From IMG/VR virus record IMGVR_UViG_3300030060_002858, positions 1 through 63,394 of that record: a DNA stretch of 63,394 nt. One strand, written 5' to 3'. Shown here in pieces: positions 2,710 to 63,394 of the stretch. A program made the translations under genes and the position numbers. Position 1 is the first letter of the stretch, and the number at the start of each line of letters is the position of its first letter. The DNA comes from a virus (Duplodnaviria; Caudoviricetes). The notes under the pieces are model-generated. The model was not told the DNA's origin. It did not search any database and was given only the letters and a program-made list of their open reading frames with translations.

Positions 2710-2721
2710 TTGGAGAATATT

Positions 2722-3830: not shown

Positions 3831-3835
3831 ATCCT

Positions 3836-3909: not shown

Positions 3910-3911
3910 CT

Positions 3912-45465: not shown

Positions 45466-48400
45466 CAACTCAGGGTATTAATAAGTGGGCAACAGAACCA
45501 CTTCCTTTTTATATGGATAATCAAGAGGAGATGAGAGAATCAGTAGGGCAGTATAACGATTTTGTTCAAGGTTTAAACCCTTTAACAGACGGCGATAATG
45601 CTCTAAATGTTCCTGATCAATTAGTTGTTGACTTAAATACCCAAGAACTAGTTAGAGGTAATTACGGTATTACAGAAGCTATGGCTCTTATGTCAGCTAG
45701 AGGATACTTTGGTGGTATGTTTGAAGACAATCAATATCAACAAAAGTATTCTGCTAATATGCAGCTAGGCATGTACAGGGGTGACAAGTATAAAGAAGGG
45801 GATCTTTTAAAGTTTGGAGCAGACGAAGAAAAACTACTAAGATACTACGCTAAAAAAAGTCCTTGGAACCTTTCAAGACTTTCGGATCCTTTTATAGACG
45901 AGACATTAGATGGCGTAGAAGATATGTGGGACGCTCCTATTTTAAATAACCTTAATGATTCTCCTAATGATTTAATGGAAGCAGAAGCTCCTCCCGATTG
46001 GTCTCCCCAAGAAGCATTAAAGGTTTTGCAATTAAGAGATCCAGAAATGTATGCCGTATATGCTAATAGTTTAGGTGCTTCAAACTTAGAGCAAATTGTA
46101 GGTGAGGCTAAAAACCCATATGATTTTTTCTATACATTAACTGATACGATTCAAACAGCAGCTTTAAATACTACCATTGCAAAGTGGTACGAAGATGCTT
46201 CTAATACAGAGATTGCTTTAGAGTACGCTAGAAACTTTATTATAGAAGGAATTGTTAATGATCCAGACCTCGCAGCAAGCTTAGGAATAACAGCAGGACT
46301 TACTACTATCGGTAGTATTGCCGGTTTAAAGGCTGGTGTTATTGCAACTCTAGCCTATAAAATACCTAAAACTTTATACCAAGGTGTTAAGTATGTTAAG
46401 TTTATAAACATGATTCGCAAAGCAGCTACCACCACCATTAGGTACATGCCTGAAAATATCGGACCTACCTTGATTCAAAAAATCCCAGCCATGAAAAATT
46501 TCAGTAGAGGAGGATTTGTACAAAAGCATTTAATTGCTAATAGAATCGGTGACGCAGGAGAAGGACTTGTAACTGGTGGTTTAGCTGAAGCAGGAAACCA
46601 GTGGAGACAGTCTACTGCTGGAGTAATTGATGAGTTTTCTTATGGCGGCATTTTTAAAGAGGCACTATTTGAAGCAGCCCTATCTCCGGCAATTAACCCT
46701 GCTATTGGGGGTATTTATAGTTTAGGCGGAGGTGCAGTAAACCTTTCCTATATGGTTTCAGATAGTGTTGCTGCAAAGGTTATTGGAGAAAAAGGACACA
46801 AAGCATTTAGTAGATTTATTGATACTACCAAGAAATACCTTAATGCAGATGACGCAATAAAAAGATTAGAAAATGCACAACTATCTTTAGAGTTATCTTC
46901 TCAAGTAAATGATCTTACTTTAGAAGGAACAGAAGTAGAAATTCAAGACGATGAGGCTAAACCAGATAGACCAGATGGAATCCTTAGCATTATACTTGGT
47001 GCTATTTGGGATCAAACTGGACTAAGTAAAGGAGACTTCCTTACTACGGTAAAAGAAATACTAGCAGATTTCCAAGCAGAAGCAGCCGATCCTAGCCACC
47101 CAAGAAATAAACTAGGAGTAGATCAAGAAATTTTACTTTCAGAGATTGCACAAGAAGTTGTTAATAGAAATAGAGATGTAATTTTAGAAGCCAATGACGG
47201 AGATACTTCGTCCTTTGAAAAGATTTTGGGATGGACTCAACATCACTTAAGACTGGCTAGCGATGCTAAAAAAGAAGGAAAGACTTATAAAGAGTATACA
47301 GAAAAAATTATTGCTGATAATGAAGAGTGGAAACTTCTTGCGCCTCAAGTATTAGAAGCAGTCAAAGAAAAGATGGGCGATAAGTTTGACTCTAGTACTA
47401 CAGAAGAAAAACTAGACGTAGCCTTAGAATACATGCAAGAAACAATTCTTAAACAACAACAAGCTATTCGAGATTTAGATACATCTACTAAAGATAAAGA
47501 AGAAACAGCTGATGGTTTAGAAGAAGAACTAGAGGCAGCAGAACCTAAACCTGATCCTAAACCAGAAGACGCTCCTACTGGAGGAGAGCCAAAGGGAGAG
47601 GATGATAAACCAAAAAGAAAACCACCTCCGGGTGACGGTCCTATCGAAAGAAGAGCAGAATTAATTGAAAGATTAAAAAGAATGAAAGAAAGAGCTGAGA
47701 AGGCAAAGGCAGAAATTCAAGAAAAACTAGATAAGGGATTCAAGGGAGTAAATAGAAAAACAAAAGAAAATATTGTAGAGCTTGGTAGAAAGATTGATGA
47801 GGAGCTAGCTTTTGTTGAAGGAGAACTAGAGTCTTTCTTAGAAACTCATGGATTAGAAGACGGTGAAGTTAAAGACTCAATTCAACTTATGAAAACTTTA
47901 GAGACTGAGTTAAATGTTCTAAAAGAAACTCTTTCTAAGGATATTACTGATACAAAGGATGGTATACTATTTGGTTTTGTTCGGTTAAATAAACTAAGGG
48001 CTGCTAGAGAAAAAGCGGGTCTTCTTTTATTCAGAGATCTTAATCTAGAAAATTCTAAAAGAACAGAAGAAGGTAAGCCTGAGCTATCAAAATTACCTTG
48101 GGATAAAACACAAGAAGATACTAGAGAAGCTTGGAAAGAGCTAGCTGAACTAACAAAGGGAGATGAAAGTAAAGCAGCACAGAGAATTAGGCAGTTTGTA
48201 AATGACTTAGAAAGCGGAAAAGAAGAAGGTATTACAATGGGCGGTGTTAAAAATACTTTTACAAACTATATGAATATGCTCGGTACAGTTATGAAAAAAC
48301 ATGAGGAAAGATATAATAAGAGAGAAGATTACAAGAAACATGTGAGTCTATTTAAACAGTACAAAGCAGCTAGAAAGAACTATCAAAGGCTAATGTCTTC

Positions 48401-51400
48401 TATCTATAGATCAGAAACATTAAAAGATATTCAACAGTTTAATGCTATTCAATTACAACAAACAGGGCTAAGAGAAAAGAAAGAGCAAGAGTCTGTATTA
48501 AATGCTAGAAGGGCTTTATTCAATGAGTTCATTGCAGAAAAAGAAGCTAGTGGCGAAGATATTACGATGGAAGAATTTTTAAACTTTTTACATCCTTATT
48601 CAGAACAAGCTCAAACAGAAGCAGCGGCTATTGAACGAGATGCTAGCAAAGGAAAAGAAACTCTTACCATTGAAGAAGCGAAAAGAATTGAAGGCAAGGA
48701 ATATCAATCTGTAAAAGATCAACTTAAGTATTTGTCTATTGGTAAACTTTCCGGAATTAATAAGGGTGGTAGGTTTAAATATGTTCGGGGTAATTGGGAA
48801 CACCAGCATAGTGATTCTGATATTCTAGGAACATCTTATGATCCTGAGTTTGTTCTTAATGAATCAAACTACGGTAAAGAATTAGATACTGATGTAGTAT
48901 TTACCAGAGATTTAAGATCCGATCTAGAAGCTTGGATTGAACTAGAGCAAAAGATTTTAGCTATTGCAAGTCATACAGATCCATCTAAAGGTATTGCTGC
49001 TTGGAGAATTCACGCTGCATTGCCTCCTTACTTTAGAGATTTCTTGGGATTAGGTCCTTATGTGGTGTTTGGTAGAGGAAATATCCTTGGTGCTGAAAAC
49101 TCTGCTTTGATGCCTACTGAAGCTTTAGACCATAACTCGTTAGACCTTACCGATGAAAAAAGTATATCAGAACTTCAAAGATATCAACATCTATTAAGAT
49201 ACGATCCTCAAAAAATCTTGGCTATTATTAGAGCATGGAAAGACCGTGGACTAGCTAAAATTGATGGATGGGAAGCTAGAGAAACATCTTTTATTTTAGA
49301 CGAGCTTTCAAAAGAAATGCAAAACGAAGGAGACCCTAACTCTGCTGCTAACTTATTCTATACTCAAAAACTTTTAGAAAGAGTTCACAATCAATCTAGA
49401 GCTATTAATATGGCGAACTGGACAAAACGCCAAGGAGAAGGTGGCGGTTATATTATAGCCGTTGATCCAGATACTGGATTCCCTACGGAGTTTACCAACA
49501 GTGCTGGAACTTATAAAAGAGAAGCTCTATACCACGCAAAAGAAAGACTACAGTTTCTATTTGGCACCAGAAGATTTACAGAGCTACAACAAGTAGCTAA
49601 ATCTCTAGGGTTACTAACAGAAATTAGTCGAACAAAAGAAGACGGAAGAACAGAAATTATTATACGAGATAGAGAAGGCAATGTAAGAGCAGATGTAGTT
49701 GAGTATCTTACAGAACAAATTGGAGAGCAAACTGATATTAACATTACTGATTTAGGAAATGGTAACGAAGACTATGCATCAGCTCAAATCGCAGGCTACG
49801 GTATAGTAGACTTTATGAGTCAAAAACCAATGCCAGCTGTCCAACAAAGAAGTGTTGTTCTAGATAAAGATGGTAATACTGTTCCTACTGAAAGCAATGA
49901 AGATAGTGAAACCGCTTCTTTACCTACTGATATCCGCCTTCCTCAAGAAGGAGAAACAAACGCAGCTATGCCCATTCCTGTAATGAAACTAGCTGAGTTA
50001 ATTCAAAACTTTAAGGCTAGAGAAAGAATGCGGTATATCTTAAGTAAGGATACTTTTACGGACGCAGAAAGAGCTGCCTATAAAGAATGGGTAGAAGCTA
50101 AATGGTCTGATGTTTTAGCTGGAATGGATCCTGATCCTACCGGAGAAAACGCACAGATCTTTGTAGTTCCCCAAATAGTAGGCGGATCTCTACATGAAGC
50201 TGTAATGTCCCGAGCCGAGGCAAAAGAATTCTTACTAGAACTTATGTTAGATATCCCAAGAAACGCAGAAGCATTTATTCACGACCAAGTTACAAGAAAA
50301 CGCGGAAGTGCTTTAATGTTTAACGAGGGTCAGGGAGAGAAGGAAATTAATGTTTTAGACAAAGAAGGAAACATTGTAACAAAGAAAATTAAAGACCTCA
50401 ATGTTGAGGGTGGTCTTATGTTTGACCTCAGCCACGGGGATCACATGCTTGTTCCTCTAGGACGAATTGGTGAAATCATGGCAATTGAAGCAATGGGTCC
50501 ACAGTTTGCTGGGCTTACCGATATTGTAATAGACAAGGTTGTGCAATACTCAGATGCAGCAAGAAAAGAAGGAACACTAGATGAACTGCTAGCTTTTGAA
50601 AACTGGAGTGACAGAACAGCTAGCGGTGTATTTGAAATGAAACTACTTTCTTTAGCAGGAGATGCAGACTCTACTATTGAAATTGAAGTAGATGGTAAAA
50701 CTAAAAAAGTAAATGCACCTAAACTTTTAGATATGATTAGAGATGGAGTTATAGAACCGGGAACAAAAGCAGAGTCAGATTTTTATCTATCAACAGCAAT
50801 TATTGCGGCACCTTTATTTGCTATGGGTAAGAAAGGCGGACTACAAACTCTATTTGATGTTATTAATAAAAACGATATTCGTAGTGTAAAAGATCTTCAA
50901 GAAAAAGAAGCTGGTCTATCTGAAGGGGATAAAAAGAAGTTAAAACTATTGCGAGAAATATTTAAAGTTCCTGTTATGAGAAGAATTTATGGCGGATCTA
51001 AACCAAACTTTGATGTAGAATTTTCAGAGGGAGGCAAGGGATACGAGGCTTTAAAGAAAGCAGGCATGACTTCTGAAGAAGATATTGCTGCTCTTAAAAA
51101 AGTTTTATTCTCTGGAAACGGAGGAGCTACGCACATCTCTAAGACTATTCTTATTGACTATGCATTGGGAGTTAACGATAGAACTAAATATCTTGTACAA
51201 AAGTATTTGGGTATTGATCAAACCAGAAGCGTACCATTGTTAGACACATGGAAAGAATTAGTTAAACTAGATAATAAAGCCTTGTCTGCTGAGTTAGAAA
51301 GATCTCAAACCCACATCAGACTATTAGAAGATTCTTTAAGACAGAAATATGAGATTGATAATCCTGCTGACTTAACATTTGAACAATGGAAAAAAACAAA

Positions 51401-54400
51401 AGGATATAACAAGAGGTTTGAAAAAGCCAAGGCTTACCTAGAAGAACAAGAAAAAGCAAGTAATCCTATTCACCCCGGTACTGTAGCCTATGAAACATTT
51501 AAAAAAATACTTCAAACCACAGATCAACTAAGTGCTGAAAGTATTGGATACTTTAGAGCACTAAATATTCTTAACTCGCAAGAGTATAGGTTAAACGTAG
51601 ATCGACTACAGTTTGTAGCTCAAAGAGTATTGGGGTTAACAGACTTTAGTGTGCAAGACTTTATGGGATTTGAGCAGCACGCCTTGTATCAGCTTATGTT
51701 GCCCACAGCAACTTCAGGAAGAACATATCCGTTAAACACAACCGGACTAAATCCTTTAGGCATCTCTTTAGAAAGAGTAGCAAGAATGCAACCCTTTGTA
51801 AAGGATGGAGTTAGGTACAATGACTTTATTGATTATGTAGAAAGAAACCCCGGACTAGATGAAGCTGAGTTTAAAAAGGATCTAGAAGATTACCTAACCA
51901 ATCACGACGGAGCAGATGCTTTCGGTGCTTTTGATCTTGAAGATCCATCTCTTAGGAAGTTTGAAACTAGAGAAGAGGCTGAAGCTGCTCTTGAAGATCT
52001 AATGATTAAACAAGAGATGATGCTATGGTCTAGTTATGATAAGCCACCTAAGGAAGTATTTAAAGACTATACCGCAGAAGACAGTGATGAAGGATTCTTT
52101 AATAATCTTCTTACACAGTGGCATCAGCACTCAGAGCAAAGGCACTTGACGCTAAAAGAAGAAATAGCTTTCGAACAAGCCGAAGCAGATAGAATGATAG
52201 CAGACGGCAAGAGACCCACAGATAGTCCAGTTCTACAATTAAAAAATAAAGCTGGTGGGTTGGTCAATAAGAAACTAGTTGAAGCATCTGAAGGAGAGTT
52301 TAGATATCTTCCTTATCATGTTTCTGAAAGAAATCCTTCTTCGGTAATGATTCACACAGCAGGTCAAAGAGGACCACTATCTATGCGTCCTCGATTTAAA
52401 GAAAGACAGTACTATGATATGGGACTATTAAGTTTACAGAAGAGGCACGTTCAAGATAGGATTACTAAAGCAATGGGGCCTATTGAAACTATTAGAACAA
52501 ACGCAGATTCTCTAACAGAAGAAGATGCTATGATTAGCGGAGTTAACATAGGACACGCTCCAGCTTGGGATTCTAACAAACTGCCTCAGGTACTTCCTAC
52601 GCTTCCTAGAGCCATTGCCGCAGATCTTAGAACAGACATGGGTCAGAGAGCAGCTAAGATTTATTATGAAGTTTCTATCTGGGCTGAAGAAAGAGGACTC
52701 GCAGATAAACTAAAAGAAGATCCAGAAAACTTTGTACGTTTTTATATTATTAGAGAAATTGAAGAAGAGCGCAAGAGACAACTTAGAAGGACCAGAGAGA
52801 GTAATATTACAAATGAGAATGATATTATTGCAGCAAGAAATAAATGGATTGGAGGACTGCACGATATTAGTAGATACTCTAGAGATTTGAAAGATCCAGA
52901 AGGTAGGCGAGGTCTTCAATTGTTTACAGAAAGACAATCCTTTGCCGCTGTAAATCCAGCTGAAGAAGGCGAACTATACATGGATCTTCTAGTTAATGTA
53001 GCCGACGAAAACAATCCAGATGGTTTCTTGTTTACTAGAAGTCTTTTAGATGACGCATTTAAATTAGGGCCAGTACCTACGGGTGAAAGAATTATTATCA
53101 CGCCAGAAAATGTATCAGATGAAAAGACAATGGAAGAGATATTTGAATTTAAGGATCTTAACTTAGAATCTTGGGCAGTACAAAATGCTGACTTTAATAA
53201 ATTCTTAGCGGCTCAGTTATTTACAGAAGCAATCGGCAAAGCCATGCTAGAGTTTGAAGGCGGTAAGTATAAGAGTGTAGCGTTTACTCCAGATCAATGG
53301 GAATTTGCAATAGATCCAGAAGACCGCAAACCTTTAATTGCACTAGCAAAACAAATGGTCATGGAAATGCCTTCGTTTGAACTTACAGTAGGAATTGAAG
53401 AGTCGCTATACAACGACGATAGTAAGATTTCAACTTATAGGATGACCATTAACAGAGAAGGCGTTGCTCCTGAAAAAGGAAAGGAACGAGATAAGAAGGC
53501 CGTACCAACTCAACAAAGAAATGTGTTTGGGGCAGCAACGGGCTTTGGTATGCAGGTGATGACTAGAACTAAGTTAAAATCTAAAAAGGCAAAGCTTGCT
53601 CTTACACCAGAGCACAGAATGCAGTTATTCTCAATACTAGAAAACGCTCAAACCATGCAGGGAATTACTTTAAGCAATTGGTTAAATAAAGGATTAGGCG
53701 TGAAGTTAACAGAGGACGGTCAGATTGTTAGAGCGGTTCCTATCCAAGATAGAGTAGCAGATGCAATGGGCTATACTGCTCGTCCTATTAGAGACGCAGC
53801 TATTAACGAAGCTGAGGCCCTAAGAAGAGTTAGTTCGGTAGACGGTGAAAGTAGTGTTAGAATGATTGACGACCCTCTTACCAGCGTAAGGGGAGCTAGA
53901 GTTAATGTAGTAGATTTAGATTACTACGCTAGGGATAACTCTTCTTGGGGAGACGGGTCTATTAATACTGCTTGGCTTGAGTCTTACGTTAGTCCTATTA
54001 CTAAACTAATTCATATGCTAGATAGATCGGGAATTCAAGCCGGTAGTGAATTGGCAGATCTTAAGTTAGAACTACAGTCTTTAATTGCTTTAACAAGAGA
54101 ACAGGACAATATGTCTAGTGTTGTTGTAAGATTAATTGCATTAAAACTAGAAGATCCTTCTTTAGATTTTAGAAAAAATAAAATCAAAATGTTTTTTACA
54201 GACGCAGAAAGAAACGGAGATGACTTTAATACTGCTATTAACAAAGCTGACTCAATTATTTTAAAAATTAAAAAACACACATCAGACTATGGAGTTACTA
54301 GAAAACTTCCCGGATATTACGAAGCTAGGCAGTTTATCACAACTCAAGAATATAGTCCTGCTAACTTTGAAGAAACACTTCTTGCTTTTAAAAAGTATCT

Positions 54401-57400
54401 AGGAGATCCTACATTTGTTGGAACAGATGATCAACTAGAAGATGCACTTAGATTTGCTTTTAGAGATTTAGACGAAGAAAGATTAGATATTGACGAAGCT
54501 ATGAGTTTCTTTGGAGGAGAAAGAATTGCTTCAGAATCTTTAGAATTATTTACTAAAGGAACTGAAGAAGAGCTTTTAACATCACTAGGGCCAGCAATTG
54601 AAGACAATCCTGAGTTAGGATTAATGGTCAGAGGTCCAATAAGAAACTTAAATAAATTAATTAGAGAACAAAAAGTTCTTTCAGAAGAAGCTGGGGTAGC
54701 TATTAAGGCTATGCTATTTAGAGCAAATCAGTTAAATCCAGATATACTTCTAAATCTAAAGTTTGAATTTATTACAGAGCGATTAGAGGGAGTAGCCCAA
54801 GCAGAAAGAAAGGGAGATAATTTTACAATTAGACTAGGCTCTAACTTTAAAACTATTACAAAAGATAATCCTTTAACTGCAATTCAAATAGTTGCTCACG
54901 AACTAGCTCACGTTGCTAGGCTAAAATTTATTGCAGATAACTCTAGAGAATATAATGGGTTATTAGGACTTTGGCAAAGCGACGAAGGCAGGGACATGTT
55001 ACGAAAGGCTGTTCAAGCTTTTCATGGTGGAGTATTTACTTCTGAAGCTAAAAAAGAATATGAAAGATATTTAAATAATCCTGAAGAATTTATCGCAGGA
55101 TTTATGTCATACTTTCTTTTAGGAGACACAAATGTTGAGATTAGAGATTTAACTAAAAAACAAAAGGGAATGTTTAATGAGTTAACTTCTATTGTAAAAA
55201 GAATGATGACTTATGTTTCTAATATTTTAAACAATCTTCAAAATGCGTTTTACACTGGAAATGAAAAGTTTGATAAAGAGGTAAGAGCACTTGCTCTTCG
55301 AGTATGGGGACATGATGCAGCGACAGGAAAGCCTGCCCTAAGACAACTTGATTCTGGTCAAGTTGCAGATGCTACATATGGATGGAGTCAAAGATTTAAA
55401 GATACTAAAGAATTTGTAGTAGACCCTGATAAAGATTTACAAATAATTAAAGGACACAAAGAATTAGCTAGACTAAACTCAAAGGCTGAACTTACAGAAG
55501 AAGAAATTCTTACTAAACATAAAATCAATGACTTCTTATACGCAGAAGGTACTTATGCTCAAGAAAACTTTGGTTTGAATGGCCTATCACGCTCTGATTA
55601 TTTAGCAACTCTTCAACAGTTAAAAGAAAAATATCCATCTAAAAAACGAAGTGATTTAGAAAATGATTCTAGAAATAACGATGAATCTATTATTGATATA
55701 CGAGAGATACTTGCTCAAGGTACTAATAAAGAAAAGGCCACTGCTTTAGCTTACCTTATGGATGCTGTATCAAAAACATACGGAGATCCTATAGCTAAAG
55801 GTCTAGGTGCCATTGGAAACAGTATAGCAGATAGCATTCCTAATGTTAAGCAAGCAGCGGCAAAACAAGCATTATTTAACTTACTACTAGGTGATACCGG
55901 ATCGGGAGAAACATTTGGTGCTGAGTTCTTACTGCCTATTCTTATTACGCAAATGCTAGATGATAATATTGTTACTGCTACGGGTAATTATCTAAACACA
56001 GCAGGAACTCCTTCTGTTAGAACAAATATTCAAAAGCTAGAGACGTTCTCAACAAGTATTAGAACCAGTAAAAATCAAATTGCAGCTGCTCTTAGAGGTA
56101 TTACAGATGTAGCAAAGAGAACAGTATTTGAGTCGTTTGTTAGTGACACCGATAAAAAAGTTATGGCTAAGTTAGACAAACAGCTTATTACAAGTGTAAC
56201 TAAATTAAACGAAGGAGAGGCAGAGTTTACTTTCGATCTTTCAGAAGATGCATTAGGGGTAGCACTAAATGATAAACAAAAAGCAGTTATTCTAAAAGCT
56301 CTTGGAGAAATTAAAAATACGTTTACTCAAATGGCAGAAGATAATATTAGAGACGGAATATCTATTGGTGAATTTGGCGAAGGTTTTACGCAAGTAGTTC
56401 CATATCGTTTAGGCAATTCATTGCGTGCCGAAGATGTAAGAGCACCAGAGTTTAAAGATACAATGACTAGCTTAATTCAAAAAAGATTATCTCAAGGAAT
56501 AGAAAGCGGTCTTCTAGATGGAACAGTAATGGCTGCGGTAGGACTTATCCCGCACTTTGGAAATAACACAGCAGCAAGAGCAGATCTAGAAAGACTTAAT
56601 GCTCAGTATCCTCAATTGGTAGATGCTATTTTAGCCGAAGCAGTTAAACAAGAGGGAGATACTGAAAGACAAACTAAAGAAAAAGTTAACCTATTAAAAG
56701 CAAAACTAAATGATACCGCTAATGTAGATTCTTTTGTAGAGTTACAAGTAGGTACTGGGCGTTTCTTAAACAAACTTGCACAGGGAACAATCACTTTAGA
56801 TAGCATATTTACTAGGGCTAGTCAACGTATTGCTTTTGTAACAGAGTATAAGACTGCTGTAGAAAATGCTAACAAAAGATCAGCAGATGCTCGAAATAGA
56901 TTAGATGCTTTAACAAAAGAAAGTGGAGACATTCGCTCTAATACATTCTTTAGTCCTACCACAAAAGATACTCCTGTAGCAGCCTTTGATAGAGCAGCTG
57001 ATAACCCAATTGAATTTATTTTTAGAAACTTTCACAAGAGAGCTTCTAGGGGAGCGTACTATCCTAACGATAACTGGGCAATCCCTAGTGTAAGAGAAGC
57101 ACTAGAAGCTAATGAAGATATCCAAAAATATTTTGTAACAGACATGGCAGCATTAGCTGAAAATGCAAAACAAGGTCTATTTAATGATATTGCTGAAAAG
57201 AAAATGTTTAGAGAGTTCGGAGTACACGGAAACATTGAGCATGTATTAACTCTTATTAGTAGCGTAGCCTTTAGCGATTATTCAGTAATGGCTCCAGACG
57301 GAACGTCAATAGAAGGTCAACGAGTAAAACAAGTTGTAGAAGTATTAAGAAACAAACATAATGCTTTAAGAAATATTATTGAAAAACCAGAAGGAACTAA

Positions 57401-59141
57401 TACGGGTTCAGTAGAAAGTTCTATTGTAGATTATGCTAATGCTGCAACAAGAATTGCATATGGAGGCAACCTATTCCTTGCTACTACTATTGTAGAAAAC
57501 GGATACAGTGCAGTAGACGAACTAATCGGAAGAGGAAATATTGTAGGATTTTTAAGAAGTGCTTTAGCTCCCTTTAGTCAACTTACAAATAGAACAGAAA
57601 GAGCAAGAGTATTAAAAGATTTTGCTTACCTAATTGAGTCAATGACACAAGGATTTTTACCTGAATACGAAAGACCGTTAGGTACAGAAGGAGATAGTAC
57701 GGTATTAAAAGCACTCAAGGGCTTGGGTTCTGCAAACATGAGGCTTGCTAAGTGGCAACTTAAAAACATTACCGCAGCCCGTGCAATAAATATTAGATCT
57801 TTTATTCAGTCATATTTAAAACCAAACAAAGATGGAACGTCTAAGTTAAGTGAATTAGCTAGATTGTTAGAAGAATCTAATCTTTCTAAATTACCAATTG
57901 AAGAACAAGAACCAGCTTTAAAAGGAATACTAAGAAAGGCAAAGATTGGAACAAACAACTTACCAATAATTTCTTACCTTATTAAAGCAGGATTATTAGA
58001 ACCTACTAGATTAAGTATGCTTTTAGAAATGATGCCTGCCGAAGGACGTTACAGTCCATTTGAAATGACTCAGGAATTGTTTACCACTAAATCTCCTAGA
58101 ACTAATGCAAAAGAGTTTCAACAAAAACTTGACATTATTACAGCCCTTAAAAATATTGAAAGAAGATATGTAGAAGAAGCTATTCTAGCTCCCAATGCAT
58201 TTGATACTGCTACTGGTCCTAGAGGAACATTTGAACAAATCTTTGAAATCTATCGTAGATATCCCGTTCTCTTTGCAAGCCAACAAGTAATTAGAAAGTC
58301 AAGCAGGGTTGGAGTAGTTAGAGCAGGTTTTAGTTTAACTTCCTTGATTCTTTTAGATATGCTTTATATGGCTGCTCTATCAATGGCAGCAGGTAAACCA
58401 CTTGAAGATGTTGTAAAGGATTATGAAGAAGCTCCTCTAGCTAGTGCAGGCAAGCTTCTTTTAAGAACTCCAATCTTTGGTAGATGGTTAGCTATGGTTG
58501 GTCCAGTTTTAGCTAAAGGTCTAGAAGCTATTGAAAAAGGTCGTATGCCATCTGGATATGAACTTACTCAAGCTTTCCAGTCTGGTTCTGGTTTTATTCC
58601 TGTAGCAGCTTTAGGAGCAGCAGCAGGTTCTCTTCTAACAACATTCCAAACTATAGGGGGCGTATTTGGACTTAATGAGATGCCTAGAGGACAAGAACTT
58701 GTTAACTCTTTACGATTAATTCCAGCAGGAGACGCAGCAATTAGACTGGCTATCTTCTCCTTAGCGGGAGATAGTATTGAAAGGAAGAAAAGACGAGGAC
58801 CAAGCGGAGCAGGATCTTATGGAGGACAGCAGCCAGTCACAGGGCTTCACTATGGAATGCACAGAAACGATGCTGCTTTTACTTGGGAAAGCATGTACAA
58901 GGACATGATGACTCCTATTCTAAATGGCGAGTTACCTCAGGTTGTAAAAGAGTATTATAAAGACATAGAACAAATGGATGCAATGCAAGAGCTGGGAGCC
59001 ACGCCCGCCTCTCCACAACCCGCCGCGCCGCCCGCAAAACCCGCGCCGTCGCAGCCAGAGATCACTACACCTAAAGTAGATCCTGTAGACTCTATACTAA
59101 ATCAAGGACCTACCAAGGCACCTGATACTTTACTCGAATAG
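45462..59141 (+). CDS. giant (4559 aa) polyvalent virion protein with T7/N4-like RNAP motifs and a zincin peptidase motif
   Basis: AAGGAG RBS; uninterrupted 13.7-kb ORF; DRTASG, SDFY, REIFKVPVMRRIYG, SGRTYPLNTTGLNPLG and HELAH..EEFIA motifs. Confidence 0.7.
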   Translation: MTTQGINKWATEPLPFYMDNQEEMRESVGQYNDFVQGLNPLTDGDNALNVPDQLVVDLNTQELVRGNYGITEAMALMSARGYFGGMFEDNQYQQKYSANMQLGMYRGDKYKEGDLLKFGADEEKLLRYYAKKSPWNLSRLSDPFIDETLDGVEDMWDAPILNNLNDSPNDLMEAEAPPDWSPQEALKVLQLRDPEMYAVYANSLGASNLEQIVGEAKNPYDFFYTLTDTIQTAALNTTIAKWYEDASNTEIALEYARNFIIEGIVNDPDLAASLGITAGLTTIGSIAGLKAGVIATLAYKIPKTLYQGVKYVKFINMIRKAATTTIRYMPENIGPTLIQKIPAMKNFSRGGFVQKHLIANRIGDAGEGLVTGGLAEAGNQWRQSTAGVIDEFSYGGIFKEALFEAALSPAINPAIGGIYSLGGGAVNLSYMVSDSVAAKVIGEKGHKAFSRFIDTTKKYLNADDAIKRLENAQLSLELSSQVNDLTLEGTEVEIQDDEAKPDRPDGILSIILGAIWDQTGLSKGDFLTTVKEILADFQAEAADPSHPRNKLGVDQEILLSEIAQEVVNRNRDVILEANDGDTSSFEKILGWTQHHLRLASDAKKEGKTYKEYTEKIIADNEEWKLLAPQVLEAVKEKMGDKFDSSTTEEKLDVALEYMQETILKQQQAIRDLDTSTKDKEETADGLEEELEAAEPKPDPKPEDAPTGGEPKGEDDKPKRKPPPGDGPIERRAELIERLKRMKERAEKAKAEIQEKLDKGFKGVNRKTKENIVELGRKIDEELAFVEGELESFLETHGLEDGEVKDSIQLMKTLETELNVLKETLSKDITDTKDGILFGFVRLNKLRAAREKAGLLLFRDLNLENSKRTEEGKPELSKLPWDKTQEDTREAWKELAELTKGDESKAAQRIRQFVNDLESGKEEGITMGGVKNTFTNYMNMLGTVMKKHEERYNKREDYKKHVSLFKQYKAARKNYQRLMSSIYRSETLKDIQQFNAIQLQQTGLREKKEQESVLNARRALFNEFIAEKEASGEDITMEEFLNFLHPYSEQAQTEAAAIERDASKGKETLTIEEAKRIEGKEYQSVKDQLKYLSIGKLSGINKGGRFKYVRGNWEHQHSDSDILGTSYDPEFVLNESNYGKELDTDVVFTRDLRSDLEAWIELEQKILAIASHTDPSKGIAAWRIHAALPPYFRDFLGLGPYVVFGRGNILGAENSALMPTEALDHNSLDLTDEKSISELQRYQHLLRYDPQKILAIIRAWKDRGLAKIDGWEARETSFILDELSKEMQNEGDPNSAANLFYTQKLLERVHNQSRAINMANWTKRQGEGGGYIIAVDPDTGFPTEFTNSAGTYKREALYHAKERLQFLFGTRRFTELQQVAKSLGLLTEISRTKEDGRTEIIIRDREGNVRADVVEYLTEQIGEQTDINITDLGNGNEDYASAQIAGYGIVDFMSQKPMPAVQQRSVVLDKDGNTVPTESNEDSETASLPTDIRLPQEGETNAAMPIPVMKLAELIQNFKARERMRYILSKDTFTDAERAAYKEWVEAKWSDVLAGMDPDPTGENAQIFVVPQIVGGSLHEAVMSRAEAKEFLLELMLDIPRNAEAFIHDQVTRKRGSALMFNEGQGEKEINVLDKEGNIVTKKIKDLNVEGGLMFDLSHGDHMLVPLGRIGEIMAIEAMGPQFAGLTDIVIDKVVQYSDAARKEGTLDELLAFENWSDRTASGVFEMKLLSLAGDADSTIEIEVDGKTKKVNAPKLLDMIRDGVIEPGTKAESDFYLSTAIIAAPLFAMGKKGGLQTLFDVINKNDIRSVKDLQEKEAGLSEGDKKKLKLLREIFKVPVMRRIYGGSKPNFDVEFSEGGKGYEALKKAGMTSEEDIAALKKVLFSGNGGATHISKTILIDYALGVNDRTKYLVQKYLGIDQTRSVPLLDTWKELVKLDNKALSAELERSQTHIRLLEDSLRQKYEIDNPADLTFEQWKKTKGYNKRFEKAKAYLEEQEKASNPIHPGTVAYETFKKILQTTDQLSAESIGYFRALNILNSQEYRLNVDRLQFVAQRVLGLTDFSVQDFMGFEQHALYQLMLPTATSGRTYPLNTTGLNPLGISLERVARMQPFVKDGVRYNDFIDYVERNPGLDEAEFKKDLEDYLTNHDGADAFGAFDLEDPSLRKFETREEAEAALEDLMIKQEMMLWSSYDKPPKEVFKDYTAEDSDEGFFNNLLTQWHQHSEQRHLTLKEEIAFEQAEADRMIADGKRPTDSPVLQLKNKAGGLVNKKLVEASEGEFRYLPYHVSERNPSSVMIHTAGQRGPLSMRPRFKERQYYDMGLLSLQKRHVQDRITKAMGPIETIRTNADSLTEEDAMISGVNIGHAPAWDSNKLPQVLPTLPRAIAADLRTDMGQRAAKIYYEVSIWAEERGLADKLKEDPENFVRFYIIREIEEERKRQLRRTRESNITNENDIIAARNKWIGGLHDISRYSRDLKDPEGRRGLQLFTERQSFAAVNPAEEGELYMDLLVNVADENNPDGFLFTRSLLDDAFKLGPVPTGERIIITPENVSDEKTMEEIFEFKDLNLESWAVQNADFNKFLAAQLFTEAIGKAMLEFEGGKYKSVAFTPDQWEFAIDPEDRKPLIALAKQMVMEMPSFELTVGIEESLYNDDSKISTYRMTINREGVAPEKGKERDKKAVPTQQRNVFGAATGFGMQVMTRTKLKSKKAKLALTPEHRMQLFSILENAQTMQGITLSNWLNKGLGVKLTEDGQIVRAVPIQDRVADAMGYTARPIRDAAINEAEALRRVSSVDGESSVRMIDDPLTSVRGARVNVVDLDYYARDNSSWGDGSINTAWLESYVSPITKLIHMLDRSGIQAGSELADLKLELQSLIALTREQDNMSSVVVRLIALKLEDPSLDFRKNKIKMFFTDAERNGDDFNTAINKADSIILKIKKHTSDYGVTRKLPGYYEARQFITTQEYSPANFEETLLAFKKYLGDPTFVGTDDQLEDALRFAFRDLDEERLDIDEAMSFFGGERIASESLELFTKGTEEELLTSLGPAIEDNPELGLMVRGPIRNLNKLIREQKVLSEEAGVAIKAMLFRANQLNPDILLNLKFEFITERLEGVAQAERKGDNFTIRLGSNFKTITKDNPLTAIQIVAHELAHVARLKFIADNSREYNGLLGLWQSDEGRDMLRKAVQAFHGGVFTSEAKKEYERYLNNPEEFIAGFMSYFLLGDTNVEIRDLTKKQKGMFNELTSIVKRMMTYVSNILNNLQNAFYTGNEKFDKEVRALALRVWGHDAATGKPALRQLDSGQVADATYGWSQRFKDTKEFVVDPDKDLQIIKGHKELARLNSKAELTEEEILTKHKINDFLYAEGTYAQENFGLNGLSRSDYLATLQQLKEKYPSKKRSDLENDSRNNDESIIDIREILAQGTNKEKATALAYLMDAVSKTYGDPIAKGLGAIGNSIADSIPNVKQAAAKQALFNLLLGDTGSGETFGAEFLLPILITQMLDDNIVTATGNYLNTAGTPSVRTNIQKLETFSTSIRTSKNQIAAALRGITDVAKRTVFESFVSDTDKKVMAKLDKQLITSVTKLNEGEAEFTFDLSEDALGVALNDKQKAVILKALGEIKNTFTQMAEDNIRDGISIGEFGEGFTQVVPYRLGNSLRAEDVRAPEFKDTMTSLIQKRLSQGIESGLLDGTVMAAVGLIPHFGNNTAARADLERLNAQYPQLVDAILAEAVKQEGDTERQTKEKVNLLKAKLNDTANVDSFVELQVGTGRFLNKLAQGTITLDSIFTRASQRIAFVTEYKTAVENANKRSADARNRLDALTKESGDIRSNTFFSPTTKDTPVAAFDRAADNPIEFIFRNFHKRASRGAYYPNDNWAIPSVREALEANEDIQKYFVTDMAALAENAKQGLFNDIAEKKMFREFGVHGNIEHVLTLISSVAFSDYSVMAPDGTSIEGQRVKQVVEVLRNKHNALRNIIEKPEGTNTGSVESSIVDYANAATRIAYGGNLFLATTIVENGYSAVDELIGRGNIVGFLRSALAPFSQLTNRTERARVLKDFAYLIESMTQGFLPEYERPLGTEGDSTVLKALKGLGSANMRLAKWQLKNITAARAINIRSFIQSYLKPNKDGTSKLSELARLLEESNLSKLPIEEQEPALKGILRKAKIGTNNLPIISYLIKAGLLEPTRLSMLLEMMPAEGRYSPFEMTQELFTTKSPRTNAKEFQQKLDIITALKNIERRYVEEAILAPNAFDTATGPRGTFEQIFEIYRRYPVLFASQQVIRKSSRVGVVRAGFSLTSLILLDMLYMAALSMAAGKPLEDVVKDYEEAPLASAGKLLLRTPIFGRWLAMVGPVLAKGLEAIEKGRMPSGYELTQAFQSGSGFIPVAALGAAAGSLLTTFQTIGGVFGLNEMPRGQELVNSLRLIPAGDAAIRLAIFSLAGDSIERKKRRGPSGAGSYGGQQPVTGLHYGMHRNDAAFTWESMYKDMMTPILNGELPQVVKEYYKDIEQMDAMQELGATPASPQPAAPPAKPAPSQPEITTPKVDPVDSILNQGPTKAPDTLLE

Positions 59142-59164
59142 CCTTTACATCCGGGGGACAGACA

Positions 59165-59425
59165 ATGGAAGCTATTGAAGGACACCTTATTGACATTTTA
59201 ATGACAGTAGTGAGCACAGCACTTTTTGGACTTATTGGTTTTGTCTGGAAGATTAGTCACAAAATTTCAAACCTAGAAAAAACCGTTGACACCTTACATA
59301 AAATGCAATCTAGAGATGTAACTGATTTAAGAAAAGATATTGATATGATATGTGCTAATATGGATAAAAACAGAGAGTGGACTACAAATAGAATGATGTC
59401 AATTGCCAAGGAGATGCCTAGATGA
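59165..59425 (+). CDS. small membrane protein (holin-like)
   Basis: One N-terminal TM segment followed by a coiled coil. Confidence 0.5.
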   Translation: MEAIEGHLIDILMTVVSTALFGLIGFVWKISHKISNLEKTVDTLHKMQSRDVTDLRKDIDMICANMDKNREWTTNRMMSIAKEMPR

Positions 59426-59970
59426 TACTATTAGATACTTGCATCCCACAGCTAAATCCTTTTGACGTACATCGATTAGAACTAGAAAATGGATACCTGC
59501 ATAGCACTGGAGGTGTAGCTACGGAAACCCGAGTAGTTGAAATAGATTATTTTGATAATAGGAGAATAGTCACAAACTTGTTTGATTCTCAAGGAACCGC
59601 AACACTTACTAACATAACTAACAATAATCATCAAGCAAGAAAAGTTAAATACCGACATCATGTAAAAATACCATATGGTGATTATGTAGTCACTCAACAC
59701 GATGACGATTACGAAGTATGTGCAATTGATGGAGAAGTTATTTTTTATGTAGAGGTTCCACTGGCTAACGGAGCAACACACGAAGTTGATTGGGTATACA
59801 CTATTGAGATTGAACCATACGGTGACTTAGACGGTGACGGTAGAATCCGAGGATATGATCTTGGTTTGTTTTTTGCTGGCTGGGGACTGCCCGGTGAAAC
59901 TGACTTTAACAATGACGGTATTACCGATGGAGAAGACATGGGTATTCTATTTGAGAACTGGACCGGATAA
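59422..59970 (+). CDS. protein with a C-terminal dockerin-like tandem Ca-binding repeat
   Basis: GDLDGDGRIRGYDLGLFFAGWG and TDFNNDGITDGEDMGILFENWTG; AAGGAG RBS. Confidence 0.75.
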   Translation: MILLDTCIPQLNPFDVHRLELENGYLHSTGGVATETRVVEIDYFDNRRIVTNLFDSQGTATLTNITNNNHQARKVKYRHHVKIPYGDYVVTQHDDDYEVCAIDGEVIFYVEVPLANGATHEVDWVYTIEIEPYGDLDGDGRIRGYDLGLFFAGWGLPGETDFNNDGITDGEDMGILFENWTG

Positions 59971-60090
59971 ATCGACTAGGGGGTCACGAATTTATCTGAG
60001 GTGATGTATAGTATTGCGCTGTTGCAGTACCCCCCGTAACCCTGTTCGAAAGGATTTGGAATTATTGTTCTTAGCTGGATACTGTTCGTC

Positions 60091-60210
60091 ATGATGGTTG
60101 TTGTCATGGTACTGGCAACCATCTCACCGTTGTTCTTTTCTTCTGAAGAGAACGATGAGGATTATCTGGAACCGGAAGAAGTAGACCCGGAGACTGGAAG
60201 GTACCACTAA
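60091..60210 (+). CDS. possible small membrane-anchored acidic peptide
   Basis: MMVVVMVLATISPLFFSSEENDEDYLEPEEVDPETGRYH; start uncertain. Confidence 0.3.
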   Translation: MMVVVMVLATISPLFFSSEENDEDYLEPEEVDPETGRYH

Positions 60211-60315
60211 CACACACCGCCTCACGCTCCCTTTACTGGGAGCATGAGGTATTCCGCAGGACTAACCCCGTCAAGGTGACGGACTAATCCTGTTACTCTA
60301 ATGGAGGGTATCCAT

Positions 60316-60702
60316 ATGGATGCTACCATTACCGTACATCGGCGTAACACTGGAACGCCGATTGAGTTCAGGACGAACGTCCTGTTCGCGTCTTCTTTCG
60401 AGAAGGCACTTCAGGATGGCAACGCCACGGAGCTGGAGCAGATGATCGTCAAGATCAAGAAGCTTCACGACTACGTGCCGGAGTCCGAAGACAGCTTCGT
60501 CTCGGAACCTCATGTCTTCGACACGATTCGTGCTGACGGACATCGATGGTACTGTGTCGCTCGTACCTGCGTCACGGCTCAGGAGTTTGAGCATCTTGAG
60601 AGAGGTCTGGAAATCATGTGGGTTCCCGAACCCTACCAGACCCTCACCGACTGGACCTTGGACATCAAGGAAGCGTCGAAGGATCTCAAGCTGTTCATCT
60701 GA
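60316..60702 (+). CDS. hypothetical early protein (GC-rich codons)
   Basis: GGAGG RBS at 60303-60307 favours ATG 60316; strong G/C third-position bias. Confidence 0.7.
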   Translation: MDATITVHRRNTGTPIEFRTNVLFASSFEKALQDGNATELEQMIVKIKKLHDYVPESEDSFVSEPHVFDTIRADGHRWYCVARTCVTAQEFEHLERGLEIMWVPEPYQTLTDWTLDIKEASKDLKLFI

Positions 60703-60972
60703 ACTCACCAGCCCTCACTGTTCCCGAAAGGGAATGGTGAGGCTTAAGGATTGTGGTTGCAAAGGATGCAACCAATAGAGATGTCTTCTCTAACACAAGG
60801 TAGTGTGGTGTAGAGAAGAGAGAATGTATGCAGACCCGTACTTGTTGTGCTGGGTCGAGGCCCTATTCGAAAGGATGTAATTTGGGCCTGTTCGTGTTTG
60901 TGGATCTAGCACGTATGCTAGGTTCGGTTCCTAACCCATCTGGTCTCAGAAGAGACAGAAAGAATTTACTCT
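60703..60972 (+). ncRNA. hairpin-dense intergenic element (candidate structured RNA, leader or promoter array)
   Basis: Seven consecutive inverted repeats; see findings. Confidence 0.45.
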
Positions 60973-62811
60973 ATGAGTAAGCTCAAGATGGCTAAGGACT
61001 TGAGGCACAGGATCCGCAGCTATGCGGACTCCCTCCTCCAGTCCAAGCTCAAGTGGTGGCTGGAGGACAAGAAGTCCGAAAGCTGGATCATGTCCGAGTT
61101 GTCCATCCCGGTGTTCATGCAGTTCCGGGATGACCTCACCCTCGATACCACTCCCATCAAGATCGATGGCAAGGAGTCTCGTCTCCTTGAGGTGGACGAT
61201 CTCAAGTCCGTTCAGCGAGAGATCTTCATCGCCCTCGATCAGAACATGGAGCGGTTGGAGTTGGACGGCTGGGAAGCTCCCCAGCGTCGTCTGGCTCATC
61301 GCACGCCTCCGACCCTCGATGGTCAGTTCGAGCCTGTGGTCGCTCGCAGGGGGGATCTCAAGATCTCCTCGGAGCAGAAGCAGGCCATGCAGCATCTCAC
61401 CAACACGCCTTGGGTCATCAACCAGAAGAACTGGGATGACATCAAGGAGTTCAGGGAGAGTCTGTCGGACGAGGATCGTAACAAGATCTTCTACGACTAC
61501 GAGGACGAAGAGGTCTCGGCTCTGATGACGGAAGAGGAACAGAGCGGCGACAAGCTCGCTTCTCTCTTCGACCGCATCGGAGACACGATCTTCTTCTTGG
61601 TCACCCGGAGGATGGATGAGGCGGGGCGTATGTATCCCTGTCCCATGCATCCGGTCTACAGCCGGTGGCTGCGGTGCGTCTTCCAGTTCCCCTCCCAAGA
61701 GTTGACGGAGGACGGCTGGAAGTTCCTGCGGAAGCACATCAAGGAGTCCTACGGACTCTGCAACGATGCCAAGCGGGATGCGTGGGCGAGGAACTGCGAC
61801 CGGGATCCCCAGAAGCTCTTCACCGAGAAGGGCAAGAAGGGTGCTGATGAGCTGGCTGCTGCACGTGGCTGGCTCGAGGCACGGGAAACCGGAGCCACTG
61901 GCTACACCGTCTCCAGAGACTTCGTGGCTCAGGGCATGGGACTGATCGCGGCAAGAGAAGGATGCCCGTGGCATCACGATCTCGTCAACGTCAATTCCGA
62001 CCAGTTCGTCTCGGCACACGATCGGTTCTCCGGTCGTATGCAGGACATGATCCGTAACTTCAGGATCCACAGCTTCGATGCTCTCAAGGGCATCTCCAAG
62101 AGCTGCATCACCCCCGGCATGTATGGGGGTGGCGGGAGTGCGATCTCCTGCAAGCTCACGGACATGTCCAAGGATGCCTTCGGTGAGTGGAACTTCGGCG
62201 AAGACGGGAAGAAGTTGCCCGAAATCGACCCGATCCTGCTCGACTACATCGGTAAGGACTTGTCCCCCGATGAGCAGATGGATGCTATCTTCAGCCTCTC
62301 GAAGAAGCTGACCCGCATCCTCCACTCGACCTTCCCGTTCCTCAGTCCCTATCAGGAAGCGGTTCGCCGCCACTGGAAGGGACACATCCAGAACGGCAAG
62401 TTCCCGGTCTTCACCGGAACCGATGGCTACGAGTACCACTCCTCTCCGTTCAACGTGAACAAGAAGTTGACCCGTTCGGTCAGGTTCTCTCGCTACCGCG
62501 ACGGCAAGAGGGTGGGGCAGCCCAGCGTTCAGTGCTGGCTGCACCAGCTGGAAGAGTCCGGCACGCCCATGTGTGCCAAGATCATCTTCATGCTGGACAG
62601 GTTGATCGCGATTCGGATCATCCTTGCACTCGCCAAGCGGGGCATTCATGTCTGCTCCATCCACGATGCGTTCCTCGTTCACCCGAACTACGGATACATC
62701 TTGGAGCAGGTGGCGACCGAGGCGTACAACTCCGTCATGTCGGAGAACGCCGATGTCATCGGTAGGATCTACCACGCCCTGCCGAACGATGCTGTCCTCC
62801 TGAGGGCCTAG
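60973..62811 (+). CDS. second, highly divergent T7-superfamily single-subunit RNA polymerase (RNAP2)
   Basis: Motifs in canonical order: AMQHLTNTPWVIN; MDEAGRMYP; motif A RDFVAQG; motif B KGISKSCITPGMYG; AKIIFMLD; motif C IHDAF. Confidence 0.85.
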   Translation: MSKLKMAKDLRHRIRSYADSLLQSKLKWWLEDKKSESWIMSELSIPVFMQFRDDLTLDTTPIKIDGKESRLLEVDDLKSVQREIFIALDQNMERLELDGWEAPQRRLAHRTPPTLDGQFEPVVARRGDLKISSEQKQAMQHLTNTPWVINQKNWDDIKEFRESLSDEDRNKIFYDYEDEEVSALMTEEEQSGDKLASLFDRIGDTIFFLVTRRMDEAGRMYPCPMHPVYSRWLRCVFQFPSQELTEDGWKFLRKHIKESYGLCNDAKRDAWARNCDRDPQKLFTEKGKKGADELAAARGWLEARETGATGYTVSRDFVAQGMGLIAAREGCPWHHDLVNVNSDQFVSAHDRFSGRMQDMIRNFRIHSFDALKGISKSCITPGMYGGGGSAISCKLTDMSKDAFGEWNFGEDGKKLPEIDPILLDYIGKDLSPDEQMDAIFSLSKKLTRILHSTFPFLSPYQEAVRRHWKGHIQNGKFPVFTGTDGYEYHSSPFNVNKKLTRSVRFSRYRDGKRVGQPSVQCWLHQLEESGTPMCAKIIFMLDRLIAIRIILALAKRGIHVCSIHDAFLVHPNYGYILEQVATEAYNSVMSENADVIGRIYHALPNDAVLLRA

Positions 62812-62834
62812 CCTCAAGTCCTACACACCACGAT

Positions 62835-62867
62835 CTCCCCTGCCCTTCGGGGTGGGGGAGTTTCTTT
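62835..62867 (+). terminator. intrinsic terminator after RNAP2
   Basis: CTCCCCTGCCC-TTCG-GGGTGGGGGAG followed by TTTCTTT. Confidence 0.88.
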
Positions 62868-63197
62868 CATTCCGGGGTTAATCACTAACGGTCAACACTG
62901 AGACCTGAGAGTGAGGGCAATACACTCCCGATACTGCGTCTCCTCCTTATCACTGTGCCGCCCACACGTCCCGCGCCCGCACGGCGGGGCGTGCGGGAGG
63001 GTTGATTTGGTTCGCGGCCCCCCGAGGCGGCGACCCAGAGTGGGTTTGACGTAAAAGTGGGTGTAAGAGTAGTTATCCCCTTAGGTCTGCCCTGATAGTC
63101 TGTTAATTAGGGTGTGATGATCGGGTAGGGTCACACCTAGACTGGATGCTAGGCCGTACACCTAGACAGTCCTTAGTACTACCCTTGGAGTAAAGTC

Positions 63198-63394
63198 ATG
63201 CCCCAGAGCATCGACATGACCCCACTTCCTCCCAAGGAGAAGAAGCCCCACTGGTCTCAGAGGGACTTGACTCCCAAAGAGGTGATCAACCTCGTCTCCA
63301 ACTGCCGTAAGGCGATGGGACAGAGCAACGACTGGTCTCCTGCCCACAAGCAGGCACTGGTTGCCAAGGCCGCAGAGCACGGCATCACCCTCAA
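63198..63394 (+). CDS. hypothetical protein, N-terminal part (runs off the window end)
   Basis: GGAG RBS; MPQSIDMTPLPPKEKKPHWSQRDLTPKEV... open to the window end; GC-rich codons. Confidence 0.6.
   Translation, partial: MPQSIDMTPLPPKEKKPHWSQRDLTPKEVINLVSNCRKAMGQSNDWSPAHKQALVAKAAEHGITL

Follow-up and report, generated by a model that had tools for sequence, protein, structure and literature searches.

The genome of a marine, T7-like phage, catalogued as IMG/VR virus record IMGVR_UViG_3300030060_002858 (Duplodnaviria; Caudoviricetes), raises the question of why AT-rich phage DNA should give way, at one end of the record, to a sharply bounded GC-rich block that holds the gene for a second, small RNA polymerase (RNAP2). 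The window analysed in our study is the entire linear record of 63,394 bases (CheckV completeness estimate 94 %), in which all long open reading frames (ORFs) lie on the + strand, and the block, hereafter the island, occupies positions 59971-63394. Our study found the island to be part of the phage genome and to recur in four further lineages. The reading that we prefer, with a probability of about 0.5, is that it represents a start-up operon kept host-like in composition because the unmodified host must express it.

The GC content per kb was 0.31-0.45 over positions 1-60000 and then 0.50, 0.59 and 0.59 over 60001-63000, crossing 0.50 near 60100-60300. The switch from AT-rich to GC-rich sequence described in the original prediction was confirmed gene by gene, as the GC content at third codon positions (GC3) was 0.20-0.48 in each of the 49 genes on the + strand up to 59970 and 0.69-0.81 downstream of the step (ORF 60301-60702, 0.69; polymerase gene 60973-62811, 0.81; the ORF left open by the contig end, 63198-63392, 0.80), with near-equal values at the first two positions (GC1/GC2) in both gene sets (0.55/0.39 versus about 0.5/0.37). 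The depletion of AAA, AGA, TTA and ATA foreseen for the GC-rich part was borne out by codon counts, the polymerase gene using AAA for 0 of 40 Lys, AGA for 2 of 45 Arg, TTA for 0 of 55 Leu and ATA for 0 of 37 Ile codons. Non-coding DNA takes part in the shift, with island spacers at GC 0.47-0.57 versus 0.31-0.44 in 14 of the 15 other spacers. A gradient had been envisaged; the composition changes as a step instead. The genes for the DUF932 protein, the gp2.5-like single-stranded DNA-binding protein (SSB), primase and capsid, previously described as intermediate, do have GC3 values of 0.36-0.44, but AAA, TTA and ATA are nearly absent from them and they are better termed selective avoiders of these codons.

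A block that closes a linear contig and is set off by an abrupt change in composition could also be the product of an assembly chimera, in which an AT-rich phage has been joined to an unrelated GC-rich contig. This was refuted by several lines of evidence, of which spanning support and depth were taken from assembled contigs of four runs. A 1709-nucleotide (nt) Logan contig, from a run that may represent the source sample, crosses 58697-60405 with 2 differences, a contig from a separate study crosses 59670-60029, and contigs of the same run around the junction show even depths of 11.8, 12.1 and 11.3, with no break. The same junction is present in two other public assemblies (L004, 99.7 % identical over 58703-62312; L003, 95.6 % identical over 59956-63195), three additional lineages share a homologous left junction, and the island is contig-internal in two complete or near-complete relatives. 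A chimera therefore retains practically no probability, and the island is real and lies within one genome, as had been proposed. A Logan contig runs 4707 nt past position 63394, so that the record merely stops within the island. The terminator core TGCCC-N4-GGGTGG, held to be common to the RNAP2 and capsid genes, indeed occurs exactly twice in the window (28838 and 62841), a number of matches (at least two) reached in 2 of 100 shuffles; a direct-repeat search found no repeat tying the island to the remainder of the genome.

Relatives were gathered through searches with two profiles, one of the polymerase and one of the C-terminus of the giant protein encoded to the left of the island; these added four lineages, whose polymerases are as little as 35 % identical. 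All of them carry a similar, bounded island of 4.5-5.5 kb, with the giant-protein/lysis genes on one side and thyX or other AT-rich genes on the other. The island is present in 5/5 lineages, and in the four with a visible left junction it occupies the same site, with AT-rich DNA at that junction. Relatives G001 (82,250 bases) and G002 (57,086 bases) each have a single island, at GC 0.52-0.56 and 0.51-0.58, respectively, on a background of 0.35-0.47, and share the order giant protein, spanin-like ORF, island, small AT-rich genes and thyX, with RNAP1, the T7-type polymerase, directly next in G001. AT-rich DNA flanks the island on both sides in L006/L007, only the left junction is in view in L005, and L008 is GC-rich across its full 5.2 kb with no flank in view. 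As the island is about 4.5 kb long in both G001 and G002 and reaches about 5.4 kb in L006, the window carries roughly its left two-thirds and about 1-2 kb are missing. The RNAP2 orthologues have GC3 values of 0.65-0.81 versus 0.23-0.32 in flanking genes.

Such a block might have been imported, with RNAP2 transferred from GC-rich phages and its surroundings kept GC-rich by repeated re-import. The composition of the RNAP2 orthologues, which is atypical at all three codon positions (GC1 0.54-0.60 and GC2 0.38-0.41, besides the GC3 values above), and an exchange of the RNAP2 allele in G002 agree with this, and the authors who described additional RNA polymerases (RNAPs) in the marine phage group AG-10.1 suggest in their main text that these may stem from other phages by horizontal transfer (PMC12361551). 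However, the AT-rich left flank and the position are the same in 4/4 lineages with the junction in view, and the island genes show a divergence similar to that of core genes. In the comparison of the window with G001, amino acid (aa) identity is 70 % for ORF133, the conserved island ORF ahead of RNAP2, and 65 % for RNAP2, and 26-92 % for other genes with a match (RNAP1 51 %, DNA polymerase 46 %, capsid 43 %, terminase 81 %); the island has co-diverged with the remaining genome. Nor did a GC-rich donor emerge: no match to RNAP2 was obtained by tblastn among 50,697 phage records, scans of viral contigs with single proteins (RNAP2, ORF182, P0006, P0007, P0011, P0012) gave no relative, and the viral-contig scan with the six-sequence profile A1 returned solely the AT-rich relative G001. 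Searches of cultured phages with RNAP2 (tblastn) and with the 4.4-kb end (blastn) were likewise without a match. Neither patchy presence nor drift towards the composition of the recipient, the marks of a horizontally acquired island, was seen across the 5/5 lineages.

The synonymous sites of the polymerase gene bear most directly on this point. Identity at four-fold sites between the window and L006 or L008 is 0.30 or 0.34, compared with 0.28 or 0.32 expected from composition, and in every lineage C and G are common and A is rare at these sites (C 124, G 75, T 44 and A 14 in the RNAP2 gene of the window). Since four-fold sites are near-saturated in these two most distant comparisons and still rich in G and C, with no amelioration, the composition has very probably been actively maintained and does not look like that of a fading import. 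We regard the imported module as improbable.

The island is also a mosaic, and this weighs against the start-up operon, as recombination-linked processes could then explain the GC content. In G002 (L014 13557-16059), an RNAP2 gene whose product is only 35 % identical, with a GC3 of 0.71, lies beside an ORF133 that is 89 % identical, which appears to reflect an allele replacement inside the island with the high GC3 retained. The downstream island ORF has two alleles. Furthermore, a strain-level recombination breakpoint lies at 59956-59968, immediately left of an invariant 17-mer that marks the island edge: in L003 (1-420) and in a contig of run X2, a different AT-rich gene replaces the 182-aa ORF, and divergence sets in just before the 17-mer. 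A neutral regional bias would accommodate this concentration of mosaicism, if a recombination hot spot near a concatemer junction or genome end raised GC content through GC-biased repair, gene conversion or local mutation bias; the shift does hit all codon families and non-coding DNA, its boundaries are sharp, and recombination goes with higher GC3 in bacteria. To our knowledge, however, no such GC-biased process has been documented for phages. It would also have to explain why A is removed far more fully than T on the coding strand (see the counts above), why the island edges coincide with transcription-unit signals, and why GCGC is avoided in the islands of five lineages (window, G001, G002, L006 and L008; 5 seen versus 42 expected), which indicates selection acting on island sequence. 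The bulk of the window shows the same avoidance (GCGC, 20 seen versus 50 expected; CGCG, 12 versus 27), and as GCGC is depleted in both parts, island and bulk appear to be under a shared oligonucleotide constraint; the avoidance may reflect a host restriction site. Taken together, these observations make a purely neutral origin quite unlikely.

The preferred reading, a start-up operon, draws on the position of the island, its operon signals, its polymerase gene, its maintained composition and the analogy with phages T7 and N4. The 17-mer at the left edge (Table 1) is identical in the window, L002/L005, L003, L004, L006/L007 and L014, with one copy per genome or covered locus, in DNA that is about 65 % identical across lineages. 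Its role could be that of a promoter or of a site for packaging or end processing; a genome terminus had been predicted hereabouts, and the invariance of the 17-mer fits a special site at 59969-59985 without demonstrating a DNA end. A G5...C5 pairing after the 17-mer is conserved but shows no covariation. The 39-aa ORF is a shortened form of the single-pass membrane ORF of 89-139 aa that opens the island in relatives (GC3 0.71-0.80); a hydrophobic start is common to all versions, and the window and L008 ORFs have a C-terminal motif in common. ORF133 has eight homologues, at 54-100 % identity. It belongs to no Pfam or PHROG family, its Atlas search returned unnamed clusters only, with a weak lead (0.88) to a DNA-mimic family, and Foldseek with its AlphaFold2 (AF2) model (predicted local distance difference test score, pLDDT, 59.2) gave no match in the PDB at E <= 0.001. 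The other small island ORFs of the relatives had no Pfam or PHROG family either.

RNA-level signals punctuate these genes. In the hairpin after ORF133, 6 of 13 pairs are kept via compensatory changes in L002. The terminator hairpin after RNAP2 and its TTTCTT are kept in 5/5 lineages, and its core matches that of the capsid terminator at 28838-28852. The corresponding terminator of G002 (L014 16060-16130) has the core TGCCCTAACGGGTGG, identical to that of the capsid terminator of the window, and the terminators thus appear to be of one class. The non-coding block before the next island ORF retains 71-73 % nt identity even to L006 and L008, where the polymerase is 53-58 % identical; its first 22 nt occur nowhere else in the window, Rfam gave no match to it, and it could be a promoter or leader. 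Rfam returned no match at E <= 1 over 59000-63394. A motif of about 20 nt, CCCT.TTCGAAAGGAT...TTTGG, stands upstream of the first island ORF (60040-60060) and of the polymerase gene (60861-60885) and is limited to the window and its close strains (L003 and L004). A hunt for phage promoters gave repeated intergenic 14-mers that were mostly A-rich, low-complexity sequence, and the GTGGKTGTANRAG-type motif was not enriched (11 found versus 12 expected).

The polymerase gene itself begins 1.8 kb after the giant gene. Profile A1 had one match only in the PDB, chain 6dt7_B (deposited as RNAP2), which we take to be N4 gp16, at E 5.2e-6 and over two short stretches; the C-terminus of RNAP2 matches phrog_2051 (E 1.6e-8), and no match was found in Pfam. 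An exhaustive search of representative sequences placed 71 clusters in the family at E <= 0.001, mostly of 550-640 aa, and the homologues of the window protein are single chains of 589-617 aa. An alignment of 24 family members shows no variation at residues R219, D316, Y384, D542 and D565; by way of T7 D537, D812 and Y639, we presume D316 and D565 to be the catalytic aspartates of motifs A and C and Y384 the tyrosine of motif B. The AF2 model of RNAP2 had a mean pLDDT of 42.6 and was not used for fold comparison. From its sequence, RNAP2 is assigned as a single-chain relative of the N4 RNAPII type.

In the start-up operon, the unique 17-mer and a leader would be followed by a small membrane peptide, the conserved 128-aa protein and RNAP2, with a stable hairpin after each cistron that precedes RNAP2; an intrinsic-type terminator, a second conserved leader and one or two small genes would complete it. 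The need for this module to be expressed by the naive host would be the reason why selection holds it at a host-like base composition, nearly free of A-ending codons, and as such codons are nearly absent, the module would need none of the tRNAs of the phage. It may also escape whatever host measures are directed at incoming DNA or RNA rich in AT. Transcription of the rest of the genome, which is AT-rich and contains the tRNA genes for AAA, AGA, UUA and AUA, would fall first to RNAP2 and next to RNAP1. That the island is an early operon is somewhat probable, judging from its position and by analogy, and host-matching as the cause of its composition has about an even chance at best. Three elements are those that we infer: early expression, a host that is GC-rich or decodes A-ending codons poorly, and selection over neutral bias.

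A stricter version nested within this reading, proposed in the original prediction as a temporal codon programme, holds that the island is GC-rich solely for translation with host tRNAs before phage tRNAs exist, and that the latter then license the AT-rich genes. The concept is established: AT-rich cyanomyoviruses of high-GC hosts are described as carrying tRNAs for codons that the host reads poorly (PMC3152331), and a codon bias by early versus late expression has been reported (PMC5683454). ARAGORN found the tRNAs predicted to read AAA, AUA, AGA and UUA, plus Met-CAU. The Lys-UUU, Arg-UCU and Leu-UAA tRNAs are kept in 3/3 genomes (window, G001 and G002), the window genes being 90-93 % identical to those of G001; the tRNAs of G002 are Lys, Met, Arg and Leu. 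The CAU tRNA (2635-2710) could be an elongator or initiator Met tRNA or a lysidine-type Ile tRNA (AUA), and is also found in G002 and absent in G001.

The four codons read by these tRNAs are abundant in the bulk and near-absent from the islands, with family shares of 64 % for AAA, 58 % for AGA, 32 % for TTA and 20 % for ATA in bulk genes versus 5, 7, 1 and 2 %, respectively, in the islands pooled over five lineages. An avoidance test set a priori on the capsid genes of two genomes (window and G001) ranked ATA, TTA, GGA, AAA, ACA and AGA as the six most avoided of 38 common codons; the tRNA-read codons thus rank 1, 2, 4 and 6, which suggests that ATA, TTA, AAA and AGA are poorly decoded by the host. 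However, the depletion is unspecific, as A-ending codons without a phage tRNA fall equally in the islands (CTA 0 %, ACA 2 %, GTA 4 %, CCA 6 %, TCA 6 %, CGA 8 %, CAA 14 %), C-ending codons largely replace T-ending ones, and island spacers are GC-raised too. AT-rich genes (GC3 0.26-0.31 in the window) stand between the island and the tRNA genes, and in G001 the tRNA genes lie even beyond RNAP1, so that AT-rich genes precede the tRNAs that should license them. The capsid gene, which is late, still shuns exactly the codons of the phage tRNAs. Because the depletion is unspecific, the data do not single out the strict programme, which we consider possible but unlikely.

Several further observations weigh against a host-matched start-up operon. 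Its timing is taken from position and analogy only, as a look for RNA runs containing the junction stretch gave none, and scanning the + strand of 59971-60300 by consensus revealed no sigma-70-like promoter. Scans of bacterial and archaeal genomes returned no relative of RNAP2 or of the giant-protein C-terminus, and hence no link to a host. Roseobacter hosts have been predicted for some AG-10 members, at low scores according to the text of that study (PMC12361551). The island codons amount to a generic T-to-C and A-to-G shift of bulk usage, with no dominant codon per family: Arg codons are spread over CGG, CGT, AGG and CGC, AGG accounting for 21 % of Arg and CGC for only 14 %. Such a set appears unlike strong adaptation to a typical GC-rich host, and a compositional or neutral driver fits it equally well. 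Moreover, the codon bias of the island far exceeds that of the capsid gene, which would be odd for translational selection alone.

Table 1. Coordinates of the features of the window, in positions of the 63,394-base record
Feature	Position	Strand	Remarks
Methyltransferase fragment	3-245	+	
ThyX	starts 1382	+	
Five tRNA genes (Lys-UUU, Ile-UAU, Met-CAU, Arg-UCU, Leu-UAA)	2478-4335	+	ARAGORN; AT-rich early/middle region
DUF932 protein	starts 4801	+	
T7-type RNAP1, 818 aa	6125-8581	+	phrog_414, E 3.9e-157; primase/helicase and DNA polymerase downstream
gp2.5-like SSB	9615-10184	+	phrog_112, E 5.2e-11
RusA	starts 10184	+	
Primase/helicase	starts 11057	+	
DNA polymerase	starts 13410	+	
Ribonucleotide reductase	starts 17203	+	
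Portal	starts 23480	+	
Capsid	starts 27495	+	
Tail protein	starts 29538	+	
1289-aa ORF, no assignment	starts 32322	+	
Large terminase (TerL)	starts 37839	+	
1256-aa ORF	between terminase and giant ORF	+	
Giant 4559-aa ORF	45462-59141	+	
Last AT-rich genes (giant ORF, 86-aa spanin-like ORF, 182-aa ORF)	45462-59970	+	GC3 0.23-0.30; order kept in G001 and G002
Invariant 17-mer AAATCGACTAGGGGGTC	59969-59985	+	exact left edge of island; overlaps stop codon of last AT-rich gene
39-aa ORF, hydrophobic N-terminus	60091-60209	+	from translation
Hairpin without U-run, directly after first cistron	60219-60250	+	-22.7 kcal/mol, z = -5.4, matched by 0/200 shuffles
ORF133, conserved 128-aa ORF (133 aa from ATG 60301)	60316-60702	+	GC3 0.69
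Conserved intercistronic hairpin after ORF133	60714-60741	+	-24.6 kcal/mol, z = -4.65
RNAP2, 612-aa single chain, N4-RNAPII-like single-subunit RNA polymerase (predicted)	60973-62811	+	GC3 0.81
Intrinsic-type terminator, GC hairpin then TTTCTTT	62835-62870	+	closes RNAP2 transcription unit
Conserved non-coding block before next island ORF	63051-63180	+	variable GC-rich spacer upstream
Start of further island ORF, cut by contig end	63198-63394	+	GC3 0.80

The remaining genes of the window follow a T7-like layout, as judged from PHROG and Pfam matches (Table 1). The highest identities to cultured phages are 41 % for TerL and 28 % for RNAP1 and give no clue to the host. The giant 4559-aa protein had no sequence match in Pfam, PHROG or the PDB, and a virion-RNAP domain is thereby neither shown nor excluded; over its C-terminal 700 aa, relatives show 51-54 % identity. 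Among the giant proteins of AG-10.1, the published main text reports RNase_H, SMC_N or RNA_pol domains in some only (PMC12361551). In reverse-complement coordinates, G001 contains a second terminase-like stretch (76836-77548; 64 % nt identity to 38562-39274 of the window) and a second copy of 37067-37713 of the window (58683-59311), and the G001 record may combine the sequences of two related phages.

Previously known phenomena of this kind, in which codon usage differs with the time of gene expression or phage tRNAs compensate for a GC difference from the host, are modest statistical trends. Here, the contrast takes the form of a sharply bounded block that lies 40-55 GC3 points away from its surroundings, is held through near-saturation of synonymous sites and is carried by a globally distributed group of uncultured marine phages. 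If selection maintains the island, it marks the genes required before take-over, predicts the composition and the weak tRNAs of the host, and offers a route from sequence alone to the entry or early module, and to the likely first polymerase, of uncultured phages. As a tentative generalization, some lytic phages might run a two-composition genome, with a GC-rich, host-mimicking 'boot sector' that is nearly devoid of A-ending codons, legible to the naive host and equipped with a minimal RNA polymerase, and an AT-rich payload that depends on phage polymerases and tRNAs. For the curation of viral metagenomes, our results counsel caution before such blocks are called chimeras or fresh gene transfer.

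Among known systems, the features of the phage agree with those of a published group of marine Autographiviridae, AG-10.1, which combines two polymerases with a giant gene. Its members are described as having large genomes, each with a single giant gene that encodes 3274-5566 aa, and 23 of them have a further RNAP of about 650 aa encoded downstream of that gene (PMC12361551, Commun Biol 2025). As far as the main text of that paper describes the group, it shares with the window a marine origin, a large genome with a single giant gene (4559 aa here), a T7-type RNAP of about 800 aa (818 aa here) that is encoded upstream of the replication genes, and an extra RNAP placed between the giant gene and the typical RNAP among small unknown genes. 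AG-10.1 is reported there to be without an SSB gene, whereas the window has a gp2.5-like SSB match; this discrepancy may be only one of annotation sensitivity. The GC-rich island is not described in the main text of the paper, from which the words 'codon', 'island' and 'compositional' are absent. No published description of a GC-rich early island in T7-like phages was found in the literature covered, which is incomplete.

The early operon of T7 has host promoters, RNase III hairpins between cistrons and the RNAP gene, followed by the terminator TE. This class I operon and the island have in common a location upstream of the phage RNAP and replication genes, a polycistronic structure with intercistronic hairpins, a polymerase gene and an end marked by a terminator. 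They differ in that host promoters drive the T7 operon and none was identified in the island, for which transcription by host RNAP is inferred, and the early region of T7 is compositionally like the rest of that genome. In N4, RNAPII is made early and transcribes the gene class that follows; by sequence, it is the nearest relative of RNAP2 with a solved structure, and both appear to be minimal T7-like single-subunit polymerases. The N4 enzyme is made of two separately encoded subunits (6dt7 is presumably the gp15+gp16 heterodimer), whereas the window encodes one 612-aa chain; furthermore, the phage of the window resembles T7 rather than N4 and encodes a full T7-type RNAP besides RNAP2.

Like known tRNA-carrying AT-rich phages, the phage of the window has tRNAs with U-starting anticodons that match its own common codons, and its codon usage differs by gene class. 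The codon usage of T4 early versus late genes was reportedly compared by Cowe and Sharp in 1991. Unlike known codon usage by time of expression, the contrast seen here is extreme (GC3 about 0.25 versus 0.65-0.81) and is confined to one sharp block of 4.5-5.5 kb, which is conserved across lineages, extends to non-coding DNA and is not limited to the codons read by the phage tRNAs.

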